Shown here: positions 8,503 through 31,336 of the stretch, in pieces
Numbering within the stretch: the first letter of the stretch is position 1
How the letters are laid out: each line of letters begins with the position of its first letter
Source of the DNA: an uncultured Methanosarcinales archaeon
GTDB taxonomy: Archaea > Halobacteriota > Methanosarcinia > Methanosarcinales > Methanogasteraceae
Assembly (NCBI GenBank): GCA_965369365.1
Contig: CBDUQO010000003.1
Location: forward strand, 1 to 34,325
DNA: 34,325 nucleotides
Direction: 5' to 3'
Notes under the pieces: model-generated
The model's database searches: none
What the model was told of the DNA's origin: nothing
What the model saw: the letters and a program-made list of their open reading frames with translations, nothing else
Program-made: the position numbers and the translations under genes

Positions 8503-9105
8503 TCACACAAATATCGCTGCCGCATAATACGCCCCAAAACAAAGAAGAAACACGCCACATCCTGCCAGGAATGTGCGGTATGTGCGATCAGACATCAGTT
8601 TACCGCCGCTGCCCGATATTATCGAAACAGAGACATACCAGACCATATCGGCGATCCAGTGTCCGATAATGAAGAGCACGGCAGCAACAACCCCCACCCG
8701 AAGCCCGTCCATAACCATGCTATTTCCGATGGTCAGCCACCAGACCAGGAAGTACGGGTTTGACACCGAGGTCAGAGCGCCTGTGACGACAGGACTACCG
8801 GTAACGCCACCTTTCACGTCAAACGTGGCGTTCCTTGACGAGCGTATCGTCATCATCCCGAAGATAATTAGAGCCCCACCCCCTACAAGTGATACAGCAT
8901 TAAAGATTATATCATTTGCGATCGAGAATCCAAGCAATATTACGCCACAGATCAAGACTTCGACCGCCGCATGTCCAAGCACGATCAATGGACCTGCAGT
9001 CCAGCCCCTCCGAAGTGATGCCTCAATGGTTGCAAAGAGCATTGGTCCGGGGACGGCTGCCCCGGTAAGCCCGATGAGAAACCCGATTACAAGCAGCTCG
9101 ATCAT
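8503..9105 (-). CDS. LysE family translocator
   Basis: GLTGAAVPGP, GHAAVE, SNPYFLVWW; fully hydrophobic ~200 aa. Confidence 0.9.
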   Translation of the reverse strand: MIELLVIGFLIGLTGAAVPGPMLFATIEASLRRGWTAGPLIVLGHAAVEVLICGVILLGFSIANDIIFNAVSLVGGGALIIFGMMTIRSSRNATFDVKGGVTGSPVVTGALTSVSNPYFLVWWLTIGNSMVMDGLRVGVVAAVLFIIGHWIADMVWYVSVSIISGSGGKLMSDRTYRTFLAGCGVFLLCFGAYYAAAIFV

Positions 9106-24714: not shown

Positions 24715-25995
24715 CTAAAGCAGCCTTGCTGGCACGACCTGTTTCGCGATCAGGTCTCCGTAACTCTCCTGTCCGCGTATCAAGTCCACCTCACCCGCGC
24801 TGACCAGAACCTCGGCACACCTACAGCGTCCGTTATACTGGGAGCTCATGGAAAACCCGTACGCTCCGACATCGAGCACGGCAACCACATCACCAGGTTC
24901 GATTGGCGGCAACTTACGATCCTTTGCAATGACATCGCCTGATTCGCAGATTGGTCCCACGACAGTATACGTTTCAGTCCCGGCAAGATCCGCTTTGTTT
25001 GCAACAACCACCTCGTGGTGCGCATCATACATAGCGGGGCGGATCAGCAGATTGAGTCCGGAATCCACACCCACAAAAGTCTTTGCCGCCTTTTTTATAG
25101 TATTTACACCCGTGAGAAGAATGCTTGCATCGCCGACGATGTATCTGCCCGGTTCAAGTATCAGTTTTGGGGATATCCCAAGATTTTTCGAGCGCTCGTT
25201 AAACGTTGGGAGGATTGCGCCAGCAAGATCGCGTGGTTCTGGCGTTTTTATATCCTTCTGGTACGGAATGCCAAGCCCGCCCCCAAGATCAACAAATTTG
25301 AGATCAACGCCGAGTCTCGTGATCTGTTCGACCAGATCCATCATCTTTTCGACTGCCTCGCCGAAAGGAGCAACATCGACGATCTGCGAGCCGATGTGGC
25401 AGTGGATGCCAACCGGACGCACTCCTCTGAGTTTGTTTGCCTCTTTGTACGCTTCCACCACATCAGCATACCCGATTCCAAACTTGGAGGCTGCAAGACC
25501 GGTTGCGATCTTTGGATGGGTGTCAGGAGAGACGTCAGGGTTGACCCTGAATGCAACATCCATTGTTTTGCCGGATTTGACAGCGAGATCGGAGAGTGCA
25601 TACAGTTCGTGGAGCGAATCCATAGAGACGCGCACTCCGGTATCAATTGCCATCTGTAGCTCGTTTAACGTCTTTGAGTTGCCATTAAAAAGAATCCGCT
25701 CCGGCGGAATACCTGCAAGGAGTGCTGCGTAGAGTTCGCCGTCAGAGAAGACGTCAGCACCCGCCCCTTCGGACGCAAGGATCCGCAGGATCGCAAGATT
25801 CCAGTTTGCCTTTGCTGCATAGTATATATCCGCATCAGGAAATGCTCCCCTGAATGTGCGGAAGTTCCTGCGCACACGGTCTTCGTCGAGTACATACAGC
25901 GGCGTACCGTACTCCTGTGTGAGTGAGACTGTATCGACGCCGCCGATAGTGAGGTGGTGGTTCTGTATGCTGAGATGATCGCTTATTCCGGACAT
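24715..25995 (-). CDS. lysA: Diaminopimelate decarboxylase
   Basis: YGTPLYV, YAAKAN (PLP lysine), SKFG, HCHIGSQ, LGGG, EPGR, GPICESGD, GAYG. Confidence 0.96.
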   Translation of the reverse strand: MSGISDHLSIQNHHLTIGGVDTVSLTQEYGTPLYVLDEDRVRRNFRTFRGAFPDADIYYAAKANWNLAILRILASEGAGADVFSDGELYAALLAGIPPERILFNGNSKTLNELQMAIDTGVRVSMDSLHELYALSDLAVKSGKTMDVAFRVNPDVSPDTHPKIATGLAASKFGIGYADVVEAYKEANKLRGVRPVGIHCHIGSQIVDVAPFGEAVEKMMDLVEQITRLGVDLKFVDLGGGLGIPYQKDIKTPEPRDLAGAILPTFNERSKNLGISPKLILEPGRYIVGDASILLTGVNTIKKAAKTFVGVDSGLNLLIRPAMYDAHHEVVVANKADLAGTETYTVVGPICESGDVIAKDRKLPPIEPGDVVAVLDVGAYGFSMSSQYNGRCRCAEVLVSAGEVDLIRGQESYGDLIAKQVVPARLL

Positions 25996-26069
25996 TGGTA
26001 CTCCTAAGTATGAAATGTTACAGATATAAAAAACGTCAGTTCCAAACTACTTAAGAGTTTTTGAAAAAT

Positions 26070-26270
26070 CAGTAGTTCCGAAACCGCCTCCATCCGAACG
26101 GGAAAAACCTATGAAAGACAGTTTCACATAACTCCAAATGATTTTTACTCGTCAATCTGATAATATTGTGATATAATTTGTCTTATTCTTACTTATTTAT
26201 CTAAAAACTGTTTTTATACCACACTTACATGACAATTTCCATTTGGAATTATATTCTTTCAGAAGTGCTG
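26070..26270. mobile_element. MITE-like element, left copy (~200 bp)
   Basis: Begins cagtagttccgaaa and ends tttcagaagtgctg (imperfect 14-bp TIR); colinear with 30252-30451; preceded by AAAAT. Confidence 0.75.
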
Positions 26271-26277
26271 AATCAAT

Positions 26278-26332
26278 GCAAAAGTATATATGTTACGAGT
26301 AACCAGTGTAATCGATGTAACATGGGTGTAAT
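26278..26332 (+). promoter_or_regulatory. Putative BRE/TATA promoter with an overlapping operator
   Basis: gcaaaagtatatat, then palindrome GTTAC-ga-GTAAC (26292-26303) and GTAA boxes at 26299, 26308, 26317 and 26328. Confidence 0.5.
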
Positions 26333-26471
26333 CTCTACCACTATTCGGGACATTGATGAAAGTCTTTATCGCAAATTTAGAGCCGCATGTGTTGAAAAGA
26401 AAATGAAGACCGGAGACGGTATCAACGAAGCAATCAATCTTTGGTTGAAAAAACAGGGAAAATTAAGCTAA
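26322..26471 (+). CDS. Small ribbon-helix-helix DNA-binding protein (49 aa)
   Basis: MGVISTTIRDIDESLYRKFRAAC...TGDGINEAINLWL fits a beta-alpha-alpha pattern; the track start at 26229 falls inside the MITE. Confidence 0.75.
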   Translation: MGVISTTIRDIDESLYRKFRAACVEKKMKTGDGINEAINLWLKKQGKLS

Positions 26472-26513
26472 TATAGTATCAAAGAAATGTGAATAAAGGG
26501 GGATACTCTTCGC

Positions 26514-29500
26514 ATGGATCAAGAAGAAACATATGAAAAAGTTTGTTCTGAACTTGAATATCATTGCGGGATAATAAAGGATATAGAACAAGCTCACTCT
26601 CCTGTGCAGAGACATCTTTTCTCTGAAGCAAAACGACTAATAAGAAATATTGATGCTATGTATTTCTCAGGTGACGTACCGATCGCCTACTTTAAACTAC
26701 TGTCGTCTGATTTTGACGAAACGGAAATCATAAAGCTTCATCGTCGTGTCTGGAATCAAAGTCGCATCCCTCTTCTTTATGTTATTACTCCTGGTGAGTT
26801 GCGGATATACAATTGCTTTGAAGAACCTGCTAATCCTGAGATCGAAGAATTGGATACACAGAAAAGACTTATCAAACACTTTGATATAGCAGCAGGAATT
26901 CTTGAGGGGCTCAAGAAATTTTCAAAATCTCAGATAGATTCCGGTGCTTTTTGGAAATCGGAAGAAGGGCAGAGATTTCGAAGCGATCGAATGGTGGATC
27001 AGAGACTCCTTAAACACCTTCGTATCACTCGTGAAAAATTGCACGACCAGGGGTTAGAATATTCAGTTATCCATAATCTTTTGGGACGATCTATTTTCAT
27101 CCTGTACCTCGAAGATCGCGGTGCAATTGATAAAGATACATTCTATAATCAATTTTTAGATGGTGCAACAACGTATTCTGATGTGATCAAAGACAAGAGC
27201 GCGGTATATCGATTATTTGAAAAATTGAAAGAAGAATTCAATGGCGATCTTTTTCCTGTGACTGATGAAGAGCGAAACAGCAACGTAAATAGTACGCATT
27301 TGAAACTCATCAGAGAGCTTTTTTATGGGACAGATATGGGTACAGGTCAGCAAACGCTCTGGCGTCCTTATGATTTCGGAGTCATTCCAATCGAACTCAT
27401 AAGTGCGATCTATGAAAAGTTTCTACATAAAGAAAAAGAAAAAGGTTATCTATCAAAAGAAGGTGCTTATTACACACCACACGCCCTTGTCGAATTTATA
27501 TTGAATGAAGTGTTGCCATGGCCAAGTAACCGTGACCATCGGTATGAACTAAGCATCCTTGATCCGGCATGTGGTTCTGGTATTTTTCTTGTTGAAGCTT
27601 TTCGCCGGTTGGTCGCGCGGTGGAAGTTCAGCCATAACGATAAGGACATTTCGATTCCAGAATTGAAGCGCATTCTCACTAATTGTATTTATGGAGTTGA
27701 CATCAACAAGGATGCTATTAGAGTGGCTGCATTCAGCCTGTATCTGGCATTCATGGATTATCTTGAGCCCAAGACGATAGGGGATGAAATTCGGTTCCCG
27801 TATTTGGTATACTGCCCAGAAGATCCAGACAAGTATGGAAAGAATCTGTTTCCGATGGATATATTTGAAACGGTGCCATTCGAGAACATGAATTACGATA
27901 TCATAGTAGGTAATCCACCTTGGAAACGCGATAGTCTTCCTGAACACATATCGAATTATCTTAGTAGCAGAGGTTTTGCTCGGGAGATTGCACAAGCCTT
28001 CCTATGGCGCGTCCGCGATTTTTCGTCCAATGGAAAAATCGCTTTATTGGCAACAAGTAAGATTCTATTCAACACTGAAACAAAAGATTGTCACTTCCGC
28101 AGGGAATTTTTCGGACAAAACTATGTAGAAATGGTTGTAAACTTCTCTGCGCTAAGAAGAACAAAGGGTAAGAAAGGGAGGCAACTTTTTGTATCCGCGG
28201 TTGGACCTGCTACTCTTTTCTTTTATCGTACGAATACACCCGAACAACCTAAATCTGCCATATTGTACTGTACACCCAAACCAACGAGGGCAGATAATGC
28301 ACTACCTGGAATTACCATAGACGCGTCTGAGTTCAAATTTCTACCCAGAATGAAATGTAGCACCTCTGATATGATCTGGAAGGTGGCAATGTGGGGAACT
28401 CAGCGAGATTTGGAGCTTATAGAACGACTCCAAAAATATGATACTTTGACAGCATATTTCGGTTCCTGCAAGAGTGATTTATCGTGGAAAAAAGCACACG
28501 GGTTTCAAACGTCATCCAGCCACAATAAAAACAAACCTAACGATCGCTTATCAAATATGCCGTTCATTGATGCGAAAGACGTCACACGTTTCTGGATAAA
28601 TCCCGATAAAATTACGAAAGTGAAACCAAATGCTTTTTTCAGATTCGGATGCACGGAAACATATTCCGGACCGCACATTATTATAAAAGAAGGGCAGGCG
28701 AATAAGAAGTTTTGTGCCGCGTTTACTGAGCATGATTGTGCTTTCCGCAAGACAATAACTGGGGTGTCCGGACCTTCGGATGAATCTGCTTTGATGAAAG
28801 CAATCACGGCATACCTAAATTCTTCTTTTTCATCGTATTTTCTATTCTTGACCGCTTCAACTTGGGGGATAGAACGTGAAAGTGTATATCCCACAGAGGT
28901 TTTTCGATTGCCGGATTTACCATTTCGTTTTACGGATGAGCAGATAGATAAGCTGGCAGGCAATGTTGATGCGATTGGTAAATTGATGGCAGATGGGTTG
29001 CCTGATACCGATGCGTATATCTGCAAAATCGAAGCTGAGATAGATCAAATTATTTATAAAAGTCTTGATCTGTCCAAATCCGAGCGATTTTTAATCGATG
29101 ATGTACTCGAATATAGTCTGGATTTTTTCCAAGAAGGTGAGAACTCCAAAGCCTGTAACATAGTGGATACTAAAGACCTTGAAGCTTATTCAGAAACGTT
29201 CTGTGATGCGGTTAACAGCATTCTACAATTTGGAGAATCGAGAGCAAAAGCAACGGTTTATCGTGGTGATGCACCACTTCGTGTAGTATCCATTCGCTTC
29301 AACGAAGTTGATGACGAAAGAACTGTAACGGTATCTGATTCGACCGATGAGTTGGAAAATGTTCTATCAAGACTCGACAGGCAGATTATAGAAGAATATT
29401 CCGGAAGTATATATGTTAGGCAAAATGTGAAAATCTATGATAAGAACACGCTCCATATAACAAAGCCTGATGAAAAACGCTTCTGGACTCGTTCGATGGC

Positions 29501-29552
29501 CCTGCGTGATGCAGATGAAACATTAGCTGAAGGATTGCGGCGGAGTAGTTGA
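26514..29552 (+). CDS. Large N6-adenine DNA methyltransferase, type IIG/Eco57I-like, with a TRD region and an apparently degenerate N-terminal nuclease domain
   Basis: GAYYTP, motif I LDPACGSGIFL, YGVDI, motif IV GNPPW, FNGDLF, IPIELISAIYEKF, C-terminal AYLNSS. Confidence 0.9.
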   Translation: MDQEETYEKVCSELEYHCGIIKDIEQAHSPVQRHLFSEAKRLIRNIDAMYFSGDVPIAYFKLLSSDFDETEIIKLHRRVWNQSRIPLLYVITPGELRIYNCFEEPANPEIEELDTQKRLIKHFDIAAGILEGLKKFSKSQIDSGAFWKSEEGQRFRSDRMVDQRLLKHLRITREKLHDQGLEYSVIHNLLGRSIFILYLEDRGAIDKDTFYNQFLDGATTYSDVIKDKSAVYRLFEKLKEEFNGDLFPVTDEERNSNVNSTHLKLIRELFYGTDMGTGQQTLWRPYDFGVIPIELISAIYEKFLHKEKEKGYLSKEGAYYTPHALVEFILNEVLPWPSNRDHRYELSILDPACGSGIFLVEAFRRLVARWKFSHNDKDISIPELKRILTNCIYGVDINKDAIRVAAFSLYLAFMDYLEPKTIGDEIRFPYLVYCPEDPDKYGKNLFPMDIFETVPFENMNYDIIVGNPPWKRDSLPEHISNYLSSRGFAREIAQAFLWRVRDFSSNGKIALLATSKILFNTETKDCHFRREFFGQNYVEMVVNFSALRRTKGKKGRQLFVSAVGPATLFFYRTNTPEQPKSAILYCTPKPTRADNALPGITIDASEFKFLPRMKCSTSDMIWKVAMWGTQRDLELIERLQKYDTLTAYFGSCKSDLSWKKAHGFQTSSSHNKNKPNDRLSNMPFIDAKDVTRFWINPDKITKVKPNAFFRFGCTETYSGPHIIIKEGQANKKFCAAFTEHDCAFRKTITGVSGPSDESALMKAITAYLNSSFSSYFLFLTASTWGIERESVYPTEVFRLPDLPFRFTDEQIDKLAGNVDAIGKLMADGLPDTDAYICKIEAEIDQIIYKSLDLSKSERFLIDDVLEYSLDFFQEGENSKACNIVDTKDLEAYSETFCDAVNSILQFGESRAKATVYRGDAPLRVVSIRFNEVDDERTVTVSDSTDELENVLSRLDRQIIEEYSGSIYVRQNVKIYDKNTLHITKPDEKRFWTRSMALRDADETLAEGLRRSS

Positions 29553-30232
29553 ACATGTTGATGGATATTCAAAACACAATTGGGCGGGCAAGTGACGTTC
29601 TTCCGATTGTTGATTCCAAATTCGAGAAAGCATGCCTCTGGATTATGACCGAAGCCTTCAAACAAATGAAACGAGAAAAACGCTATGATGTAACATGGAA
29701 AGAAACTTGTTTTTCTGCTTGTTTAGTTGGGCACATGCAAAAAATAAGACATGAAAATGATATCGCATTGAGAATCGATCCGGAAAGCCATTTATACCGA
29801 GAAGAGATGTTAAACTGTACTGAAGATCCTGATACTGCTCCCAGAATTGACATTAAAATCTCTGGGGGCTGGGTACACGAGAACGTATATTATGGAATAG
29901 AAGGAAAAGTTTTGGTAGAAAACGATTGGGGAACACGCACTGCCAGTGATTCACGTCGTCGATATATCGCTACTGGAATTGATAATTTCGTCAACGGTAG
30001 ATATTCGGACAAACTGGATATGGGCTGTATGGTGGGATATGTAGTTCAAGGGCGCGCCTCTGGAATTGCCTCAAAAATCAACAATTTGCTGGCACGCGAT
30101 GGACGAAATAAAGAAAAGATGATGAATCCGCACTCAATTAACGGTTGTTCAGATTGTTTTCGGTCAAACCACACACGTACCACGGACAATAAAGAAATAA
30201 AACTCTGCCACGTCTTTTTAACATTTGTTTAA
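29549..30232 (+). CDS. Hypothetical protein, predicted PD-(D/E)xK nuclease
   Basis: E...RIDIKI...GIEGK followed by YI..GIDNFVNGRY and GCMVGYV; TTGA overlap with the MTase stop. Confidence 0.7.
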   Translation: MNMLMDIQNTIGRASDVLPIVDSKFEKACLWIMTEAFKQMKREKRYDVTWKETCFSACLVGHMQKIRHENDIALRIDPESHLYREEMLNCTEDPDTAPRIDIKISGGWVHENVYYGIEGKVLVENDWGTRTASDSRRRYIATGIDNFVNGRYSDKLDMGCMVGYVVQGRASGIASKINNLLARDGRNKEKMMNPHSINGCSDCFRSNHTRTTDNKEIKLCHVFLTFV

Positions 30233-30251
30233 GGGATTTATTCAATGTACT

Positions 30252-30451
30252 CATCAGTTCCGAAACCCCTTTACTTCCAAACCGGAAAAGCATATGAAAG
30301 ATGGTTTCACCCAATTCCAAATGCTTTTTACTCTTCAATCTGGTAATATCTTGATACGCCCCCCATTTTGATTATCTCTCCAAAATATCCTTTTCCATGC
30401 CGCATTTGCATGACAATCTTCATCCAAAACTACGCCATTTCGGAAGTACTG
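30252..30451. mobile_element. MITE-like element, right copy (~200 bp)
   Basis: Begins catcagttccgaaa and ends tttcggaagtactg; shares tatgaaaga, tccaaatg.tttttactc.tcaatctg.taatat and catgacaat with the left copy; followed by AAAAT. Confidence 0.75.
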
Positions 30452-30517
30452 AAAATGGTGTGGGGCAAACGATTCCCGCCTGACAGCCCGTTTCACCGAT
30501 CGTTATCGTCCGTCCCA

Positions 30518-31336
30518 TCATGCCTCTGGAAATCGCTGCTTCCGCTTGATCTCCTCGACCCGAGCATTCAAACTCCGGTTAAGCTCCTCTCGCACCCCCA
30601 CCACGTCGCTGTCGCTGTAATAGTCGATCCGTGCGGCGATCGTTAGTTTCGAGGCGAACATGCGTGCGATTTTGCCGCGCAGGTGGCGAGGGGACGCGTG
30701 GATGATGGGGTGCATGAAGATGATGCCGTGCTTTGGGGGGGAGGCTCCGCGCAGGTGGCGAAACATCGCCCGGTTCGCACCAAGCACCTGCAGGCGGCTT
30801 GCTGGCATCCGGGATAGTTTATCGAGACCGCCTGCGATGGCAAGCAGCCTTGCAGCAAGCAGGGCACCTGCAAGGTGTGTGAGGTTTGGGGAAACGCATG
30901 GCATCTGATCCTGAATATGTGCAACAAGCATTTTTTTGCTCTCGCTTATGTCCCGTAGATTCTGTGCAAGGCTGCGCATAGCATCCGGGACGTTATTATG
31001 ATGATCTTCCACGATTTTCCTGGCAAGTTCTCTTGACTCCGGGATTGACCCCTGGTAAAAAGAATACCATTCAAACAGACGCTCACTAAGAAGGTTTGAG
31101 ACTTCGTTCAGCGTGTCAAGCGCTTCGATGTCCTGGATAACTCGTTTATCCCCGGATGCAAACAACGGGAGTAAAATTTGCTTTTTTGCAAGTTCGATGG
31201 TTATCTCATGCAATAAAACTCGATATTCATCTTCAGAACTGACAACCCCCGAATCGAACAACCACGCACGAAGATTTGTTACCGGACTTTTAAAGCCCGG
31301 TAATAACCTGCGAACAATCGCAGATGGATCTGCCAT
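30518..31336 (-). CDS. nop5: Box C/D RNP scaffold Nop5/Nop56
   Basis: NLLSERLFEWY, PNLTHLAG..LAARL, MPASRLQVLGANRAMFRHL, PPKHGII, RGKIAR..A.KL.IAARID. Confidence 0.92.
   Translation of the reverse strand: MADPSAIVRRLLPGFKSPVTNLRAWLFDSGVVSSEDEYRVLLHEITIELAKKQILLPLFASGDKRVIQDIEALDTLNEVSNLLSERLFEWYSFYQGSIPESRELARKIVEDHHNNVPDAMRSLAQNLRDISESKKMLVAHIQDQMPCVSPNLTHLAGALLAARLLAIAGGLDKLSRMPASRLQVLGANRAMFRHLRGASPPKHGIIFMHPIIHASPRHLRGKIARMFASKLTIAARIDYYSDSDVVGVREELNRSLNARVEEIKRKQRFPEA

Follow-up and report, generated by a model that had tools for sequence, protein, structure and literature searches.

The window analysed in this study is the whole of a contig of 34,325 nucleotides (34.3 kb; CBDUQO010000003.1, our contig C3) from the metagenome-assembled genome (MAG) of an uncultured Methanosarcinales archaeon (G000; 2.2 Mb in 294 contigs, 84% complete). 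In the intergenic spacer between the lysA-like and nop5 genes, about 70 bp upstream of the lysA-like start codon, it carries a unit of 4382 bp (26070-30451) that ends on both sides in a miniature inverted-repeat transposable element (MITE) and contains three open reading frames (ORFs), encoding a ribbon-helix-helix (RHH) protein, a Type IIG-like enzyme and a PD-(D/E)xK-like protein. This unit is very probably a transposase-less composite transposon, in which two directly oriented ISH3-type MITEs enclose a three-gene restriction-modification module and which was moved as one unit by an ISH3-family transposase from elsewhere. By direct reading, the left element (201 bp) starts with CAGTAGTTCCGAAA and ends with TTTCAGAAGTGCTG, and the right element (200 bp) starts with CATCAGTTCCGAAA and ends with TTTCGGAAGTACTG; the two are colinear over about 200 columns in the same orientation, with a mean column identity of 82%. 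Against the degenerate terminus pattern CAGTASTTCCGAAA, the outer ends show no mismatch and the inner ends two each; the remaining five of the nine matches in the window have three mismatches each, about what shuffled sequences give (a mean of 4.4 matches at three or fewer mismatches). The pentamer AAAAT directly abuts both outer ends, and the inner flanks differ (AATCA at the left element, GTACT at the right), neither MITE having a duplication of its own. The GC content is 0.33-0.43 in the interior and 0.51-0.58 in the flanks, compared with 0.499 for the whole genome. In all these respects the first-pass annotation, made from the sequence of the window, was confirmed: it had described two colinear but diverged elements of about 200 bp, near-intact outer and more decayed inner ends, AAAAT at the outer ends only, and an AT-rich cargo set among the housekeeping genes nop5 and lysA, the last now identified also by Pfam. 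None of the three cargo genes encodes a transposase, and no transposase match was found among the coding-strand ORFs of at least 60 amino acids in the unit, minor antisense ORFs not being scanned.

The 6.6-kb stretch from lysA to nop5 was searched in the eight other genomes of the genus, and 80-nt probes of the flanks were placed there by BLAST. Four of the eight (G005, G007, G001 and G002) have an empty site with both flanks contiguous, and in G005:C160 and G007:C175 the flanks abut, with the two alignments overlapping by 4 bases. The empty-site sequence reads ...GAGTTTT(T/C)AAAAATGGTG..., with one AAAAT at exactly this point. The genomes with clean empty sites include the closest relatives of G000, in which lysA is 92-93% identical. 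As judged by eye, G004, G006 and G008 retain the AAA(A/G)AT-GGT(G) junction (GGTC in G008) for 8-35 nt and then diverge, and the sequence of G003 diverges at this site. The search for an empty site with a single AAAAT, proposed in the first-pass annotation, was thus successful, and the reservation made there, that a 5-bp A-rich match can arise by chance, is removed by the empty sites in relatives. In addition, an environmental contig from a public marine-sediment run of another study joins 26064 to 30452 with 5 shared letters, a weak case with a shorter side of 27 nt.

It is very unlikely that the junctions are an assembly artefact, that is, a chimera of the MAG formed at the repeated MITEs. 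The MAG is indeed fragmented and assemblers can mis-join at MITE repeats, but an independent assembly of a public run, possibly identical with the source sample, gave one contig of 11.7 kb, at a depth of 92, that runs through the unit from one flank into the other with 5 differences, which argues against a chimeric contig. Moreover, the same structure is present in a second MAG (G003) and in metagenome contigs of other projects, and the genome offers only two diverged MITE copies plus a truncated third at which a wrong join might be made.

When 40 relatives were searched with the left element as query, MITE matches were detected in 12 (13 of 41 genomes counting G000) and full-length copies of about 200 bp in 7 (8 of 41 with G000). 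G021 has 8 full-length copies among 11 matches, G016 has 2 among 4 and G023 has 1 among 3; G003 carries 2 full-length copies, G014 and G004 carry 1 each, and G018 has partial matches only. Both MITEs of the window align over their full length with the solo members of this family. Thirteen full-length solo copies were fetched, and one that was out of register was set aside. Among the 12 scored, 9 are flanked by perfect direct repeats of 5 bp (GTTTA, AGCTG, TTGTG, TCATG, GTATG, GTACG, TTTCC, TAACG and TGTTT) and 3 have none; the copy set aside shows AGAGT on both sides after its register was corrected by eye. A genome-wide search for the MITE, likewise suggested at first pass, therefore turned up a multi-copy family in relatives, the solo copies of which make 5-bp duplications.

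This behaviour of the family bears directly on the alternative that two MITEs were inserted independently around a restriction-modification island already resident between lysA and nop5, without any movement of the unit. Independent insertions close to each other do happen: the control for this is G021:C86, where 3.4 kb separates two MITEs of like orientation, each with its own duplication (GTTTA and AGCTG), which are thus two independent insertions. Cargo copies without MITEs also exist elsewhere, as described below. The pattern in the window is, however, the opposite of that in G021:C86, since its MITEs have no 5-bp duplication of their own, against 9 of the 12 solo copies that have one. Besides, the whole 4.4 kb, including the cargo, is absent from the four congeners with a single AAAAT, and the same unit with the same outer ends is found at other loci. 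Independent insertion is accordingly a most improbable account of this locus.

The own genome, G000, contains only one further copy of the MITE, on the minus strand of contig C2 at about 29296-29644, which is truncated after about position 129 and interrupted by a nested element of about 220 bp with CCCCGCTACAAGTAGCGGGG hairpin-like ends; this nested element has many copies on other contigs, e.g., C60, C47, C205 and C75. The duplications of the solo copies show no obvious consensus. Similar sequences lie upstream of the composite at two independent sites, GAGTTTTTGAAAAAT in the window (26050-26069) and ACTTTTC(C/A)TGAAAT in the records L087 and L094 (see below), and from this resemblance the element may prefer targets in which a run of T is followed by GAAAT or AAAAT.

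The supposition of the first-pass annotation that the 4.4 kb moved as one unit agrees well with the identification of the same unit, with the same outer ends and other flanking repeats, at other sites. In the sister species G003 (90% complete), positions 8772-13157 of contig C114 match window positions 30452-26070 with 91.9% identity over 4388 bp. The remainder of this 13.8-kb contig has no similarity to the window, the flanks being unrelated, and the copy has the same outer termini with GGTGT on both outer ends. By segment, the identity between G000 and G003 is 93.5% for the left MITE, 93.1% for the RHH region, 92.8% for the large gene, 90.0% for the 225-aa gene and 83.3% for the right MITE. 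Core genes of the two genomes are 83-86% identical, below the 92% of the composite; the unit is therefore younger than the split of its hosts, and at least one of the hosts must have acquired it horizontally. Of the flanks of the G003 copy, only the right one has a recognisable native context in relatives, and an unexplained rearrangement adjoins the insertion at 8750-8771 (L009, G003:C114).

Further records were found by searching with the large cargo protein. L086, together with L093 from another sample, carries a complete composite at a third site, with the flanks AATAT(C)/ and /AATAT (a slash marks the junction here and below). L087 and L094 share a fourth left junction, ...GAAAT/CAGTAG, their right ends lying beyond the contigs. 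In two further contexts, those of L072 and L074, the composite is decayed: its left tip has mutated, and the right MITE breaks off after 55 or 47 bp. BLAST of flank against flank gave no similarity among these contexts except within the pairs L086/L093 and L087/L094, and the metagenome contigs thus add at least two further insertion sites. The L072 contig, which carries this archaeal composite, is filed in the MAG of an Anaerolineales bacterium; over 1 kb its left flank matches G000:C104 with 77% identity, and the contig is probably archaeal and was binned with a bacterium. A search of viral contigs gave no relative of the Type IIG protein, and no vector was identified.

All the MITE-bounded copies have common junctions between MITE and cargo, ...GTGCTG/AATCAAT... 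on the left and ...GTACT/CAGTAG... on the right. In the inner end of the left MITE, G000, G003 and L072 carry the same two substitutions (TTTCAGAAGTGCTG versus TTTCGGAAGTACTG in the family), L086 keeps both together with one more change, and L087/L094 are more diverged. These shared junctions and substitutions indicate a single assembly of the composite. Decay of the inner terminus of the right MITE took a different course in each lineage, giving CATCAG in G000, CCGTAG in G003, CAGTAGTTAG in L072 and L074, and CAATTT in L086. The three complete copies (G000, G003 and L086) have all kept their outer termini intact. Intact outer and decayed inner termini are the expectation if only the outer ends matter for movement.

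The first-pass annotation had also noted a resemblance to the ISH3 family on account of the termini and the length of the duplication, and had proposed a search for an autonomous insertion sequence (IS) with the same ends. Such an IS does exist. G021:C114 carries a decayed 1.8-kb element with the same ends and fragments of a DDE_Tnp_1 gene, and a search of the relatives with this transposase fragment led to an intact IS of 1557 bp in G016 (C341, 2-1558), the ends of which are CAGTACTTCCGAAAC...TTCCGAAC and, as the reverse complement, CAGTAGTTCCGAATAC...CTTCCGAATAC. It has one stop-to-stop frame of 404 codons, with an ORF of 400 amino acids (L062:271-1470) that scores 234.5 bits with the NCBIfam ISH3 model NF033541, above its cut-off of 225, and matches DDE_Tnp_1 at 2e-9. 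Positions 1-29 of the MITE are 93% identical to the right end of the IS, and both ends share the terminus CAGTA[C/G]TTCCGAA with a subterminal TTCCGAA repeat. Because the similarity is limited to about 30 bp at each MITE end, the MITE is an ends-only derivative of the IS. Members of the ISH3 family are about 1.2-1.5 kb in size and duplicate 4-5 bp of target. Like them, the G016 IS has one DDE transposase ORF passing the ISH3 model and CAGT termini. The duplications read at the MITEs are of 5 bp; the IS itself measures 1557 bp, and its own left duplication is unreadable, the contig starting 1 nt before the IS. Unlike members of the family, the element of the window has no ISH3 coding sequence. 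Ten loci beside stray matches to the terminal inverted repeat were also considered as candidates for the autonomous IS and were rejected, as they turned out to be flanking housekeeping genes.

A second MITE family is present in G000, about 315 bp in length (C61, 9844 onward), whose source is the leftmost 315 bp of the IS. At G000:C61 9844-10462 (L043), three repeats are stacked, namely this MITE of about 315 bp, a repeat of about 180 bp and a repeat of about 55 bp, the last being found with near-100% identity at very many places in every genome of the family.

The cargo occurs also without MITEs. Copies of this kind, 89-96% identical to the cargo of the window, were found in G023 (L077) and in L073, and their homology to the composite ends within a few bp of the inner MITE ends. 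They occupy a hotspot of a related genus, in the intergenic space where two genes converge. The hotspot is empty (7-9 nt) in G024, G013, G010 and G015, and is filled by other inserts, of about 270-280 bp in G019 and G017 and of 3.7 kb, with a 1142-aa ORF, in G021 (G021:C11 50073-53798, L078 274-3999). By eye, the extra 154 nt in L073 and 37 nt in L077 had looked similar to the MITE, but as decayed MITEs they were rejected, because they did no better than shuffled sequence in local alignments to 7 family members, the observed score being reached by 308 and 40 of 500 shuffles, respectively. More distant versions of the cargo (72-87% identical), in Methanoperedens-labelled and other records, have the two large genes only; in the Methanoperedens-labelled L075 and L076, as seen by eye, the RHH gene is absent and a different small ORF lies upstream of the large gene. 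From this comparison the regulator appears to be exchangeable. Cargo without MITEs in relatives had been named at first pass as an observation that would speak against movement of the unit; it was found, but only at other loci, and the evidence from lysA-nop5 is unaffected.

With respect to the mechanism, an ISH3-family DDE transposase made elsewhere would recognise the two outermost MITE termini, composed of CAGTA[G/C]TTCCGAAA and the subterminal TTCCGAA repeat, and would have carried all 4382 bp into the lysA-nop5 spacer as a single element, with duplication of the 5-bp target AAAAT. The composite, once assembled, would then have spread, at least in part horizontally, to several sites and species of this ANME-2/Methanosarcinales-related family. 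That an ISH3 transposase did the moving, and by which route the unit passed between species, we infer from the ends, the cognate IS and the distribution of copies. Supply of the transposase in trans, as put forward in the first-pass annotation, is in agreement with a cognate IS in G016 and a unit free of transposase; what the search did not deliver is a source within the carriers, and trans supply is to this extent presumed. Searches with NF033541 and with the G016 protein found no ISH3 transposase in G000 or G003, both of them incomplete MAGs (84% and 90%) in which its absence is not established, since repeats are often unassembled.

This result is the first of several that weigh against the proposed history. 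The only intact IS copy found is that of another genus (G016), and the genus of the window has only transposase fragments, with stops or truncations, in 6 of its 9 genomes. The subterminal repeat at the right outer end of the window copy is decayed (GTAGTTTTGGAT versus GTAGTTCCGAAT); from this, together with the lack of a cognate transposase in the assembly, the window copy is probably dormant now. There is no clean empty site for the G003 copy, whose flanks are on separate contigs in relatives, and the gene to the left of that copy is truncated 11 bp from the element, as compared with its homologues in four congeners. In L086 the repeat AATAT matches only if one extra C is allowed beside the left terminus. 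The presence of MITE-less cargo at other loci suggests that there may be a second way of moving the module beside the MITE ends. Finally, all the evidence is comparative and drawn from MAGs, no transposition having been observed.

An alternative is that the block was acquired without use of the MITE ends, by illegitimate or homologous recombination after DNA uptake or by a site-specific recombinase, the 5-bp repeats being coincidental. MITE-less cargo in several contexts, including a hotspot that holds other inserts, implies that some other mobility or recombination route acts on the module, and no transposase was found in the carriers. At two independent sites, however, the boundaries fall exactly at the outer termini, with repeats of the length typical of the MITE family, and from the base composition a chance match of an AT-rich 5-mer is estimated to be of the order of 0.001 per site. 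In addition, the ORF list and the Pfam scan revealed no integrase or recombinase gene in the 4.4-kb unit. Acquisition by such a route is therefore regarded as unlikely, and movement as a composite by the outer MITE ends is retained as the preferred explanation.

The features of the unit and its neighbours are listed in Table 1. The 1012-aa protein matches the PADLOC model REase_MTase_IIG (PDLC03603) at E 4e-90, with residues 71-1002 aligned to positions 67-1004 of the 1016-position profile, and the Pfam families N6_Mtase (8e-19), Eco57I (2e-17) and MmeI_Mtase, with a weak match to TaqI_C, a specificity domain. The motifs DPACGSGIF (binding of S-adenosylmethionine) and NPPW were read directly. 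Residues 1-290 match no Pfam family, and no D...(D/E)xK motif was seen there by eye. By its domains, this protein is a predicted fusion of a Type IIG-like gamma-class N6-adenine methyltransferase and a specificity domain, with a further domain at the N-terminus. Its identification as PglX of a BREX system was considered and rejected, as the best model gave 56 bits against a cut-off of 400, in the methyltransferase core only, and the unit has no other BREX genes.

The 225-aa gene begins with an ATG 2 nt past the stop codon of the large gene. Its product matches no family in Pfam, PADLOC or NCBIfam, and its 83 homologues are all unnamed. In an alignment of 35 sequences, E77, D99, E116 and K118 are invariant, and the AlphaFold2 model made from the same alignment has a pLDDT of 84.4. 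The best structural matches of this model are OkrAI, BamHI, BglII and BstYI, with VIA-align Z scores of 6.2-6.8, which the tool counts as middling, and alignments of 125-136 residues at 3.7-4.0 Å; PD-(D/E)xK nucleases make up most of the top 50 matches. Since a Foldseek search of the model against PDB gave no match at E of 0.001 or less and the Z scores are middling, the assignment to PD-(D/E)xK is based on fold and motif together. On this model, the 225-aa protein would be the nuclease of the system and the 1012-aa protein would supply methylation and specificity; the module as a whole would restrict foreign DNA. The ORF 26229-26471, a longer form of the 49-aa ORF, matches ParG weakly (E 0.0016; 19 bits, below the cut-off of 21.4), and the 49-aa protein has no match in PADLOC or NCBIfam; as an RHH-like protein it is probably the transcriptional controller of the module. 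An A/T-rich box at the left edge of the cargo is possibly the module's own archaeal promoter. The defence-like module of the first-pass annotation can thus be specified as a restriction-modification module without transposase.

Table 1. Coordinates of the composite unit, its cargo and the adjoining genes in the window.
Feature	Position	Strand	Basis
Left 5-bp target-site duplication AAAAT	26065..26069	.	Direct reading; single copy in empty sites of G005, G007, G001 and G002
Left MITE, 201 bp; outer terminus CAGTAGTTCCGAAAC, inner terminus degenerate TTTCAGAAGTGCTG	26070..26270	+	Family alignment; 93.5% to orthologous copy of G003
A/T-rich box AAAAGTATATAT... at left edge of cargo	26280..26299	+	Kept in every cargo version examined, with or without MITEs
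49-aa RHH-like protein, probable transcriptional controller	26322..26471	+	Weak ParG match; function inferred
1012-aa Type IIG-like restriction-modification protein	26514..29552	+	PADLOC PDLC03603; Pfam domains
225-aa PD-(D/E)xK restriction-endonuclease-like protein	29555..30232	+	Invariant motif and predicted fold
Right MITE, 200 bp; inner terminus degenerate CATCAGTTCCGAAAC, outer terminus intact TTTCGGAAGTACTG	30252..30451	+	Family alignment; 83.3% to orthologous copy of G003
Right 5-bp target-site duplication AAAAT	30452..30456	.	Direct reading; empty sites
lysA-like diaminopimelate/ornithine-type pyridoxal phosphate (PLP) decarboxylase	24715..25995	-	Pfam Orn_Arg_deC_N 2e-61; 83-93% identical in all 8 congeners
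Nop5/Nop56-like, Nop-domain protein	30518..31336	-	Pfam Nop 4e-43; directly adjoins lysA in G005 and G007

The arrangement of cargo between two copies of one element is that of Tn5 and Tn10, in which the whole is moved by its outer ends, the inner ones being weaker or dispensable. The window agrees with these transposons in its paired elements and weaker inner ends and differs in that its flanking elements encode no transposase. Further parallels are the MITE-flanked units of bacteria treated in a 2024 review of prokaryotic MITEs, among them class 1 integrons between two MITEs in Acinetobacter and mcr-5, moved via MITE ends with a transposase supplied in trans (PMC10969869). In these units, as here, two non-autonomous inverted-repeat elements bracket a cargo, no transposase lies inside and the target is duplicated around the whole unit; they move by their outer ends with a transposase in trans, as presumed for the window. 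The differences are that the host of the window unit is archaeal, that its MITE stems from an ISH3-family IS, that its cargo is a restriction-modification module and not antibiotic resistance, and that its MITEs are diverged (82% identical), unlike those bacterial units in which the MITEs are identical. With regard to the cargo, a precedent is the work of Furuta, Abe and Kobayashi (2010), who described transposon-like restriction-modification units of bacteria with terminal inverted repeats and target duplication, e.g., of 8 bp in Xanthomonas (PMC2853133). In common with those units, the window has a restriction-modification system inside inverted ends and a short direct repeat that is single in the empty-site genome; it differs in being archaeal and in that its ends are complete MITEs of an identified IS family. 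According to the same paper, no archaeal system survived its empty-site selection (PMC2853133). Mobilisation of cargo is given only for bacteria in the available part of the 2024 review (PMC10969869), and a 2026 survey of archaeal insertion sequences, in its available text, mentions MITEs once and does not contain the word 'composite' (PMC13343696). In the open-access literature searched, which excludes ISfinder and subscription journals, we found neither a MITE composite of archaea nor a restriction-modification unit bounded by MITEs. The mechanism itself is thus known from bacteria, and it is for the archaeal host and the restriction-modification cargo that the literature searched holds no earlier example.

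As to the origin of the composite, its capture from a resident module is an attractive idea, because a donor locus followed by two MITE insertions would give the observed boundary pattern; the boundary bases of the MITE-less copies that can be compared with the composite are few and diverged. Carried further, pairs of ISH3-derived MITEs might serve marine methane-cycling archaea as a device for the capture and delivery of defence genes, whereby a resident restriction-modification module is boxed in, the MITE-less loci represent the donor state, and the composite is still spreading between species of sediment communities by means of the ISH3 transposases it meets. This proposal is offered tentatively, as we think it rather less probable than its contrary. 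If the capture reading is true, the unit would be the first documented case of MITE-composite mobilisation in Archaea, and the first in any organism with a restriction-modification system as cargo.

Little has been documented on the transfer of defence genes from one archaeal genome to another. For an uncultured archaeon the comparative evidence assembled here is unusually complete, covering empty sites, insertion at several loci, duplicated targets and a cognate IS, all of which are shown, as are the structure of the unit and the annotation of its cargo. The defined pair of DNA ends, together with the transposase, is a candidate genetic tool. For the methane-cycling archaea themselves, the composite provides a concrete mechanism for the patchy content of defence genes among close relatives.

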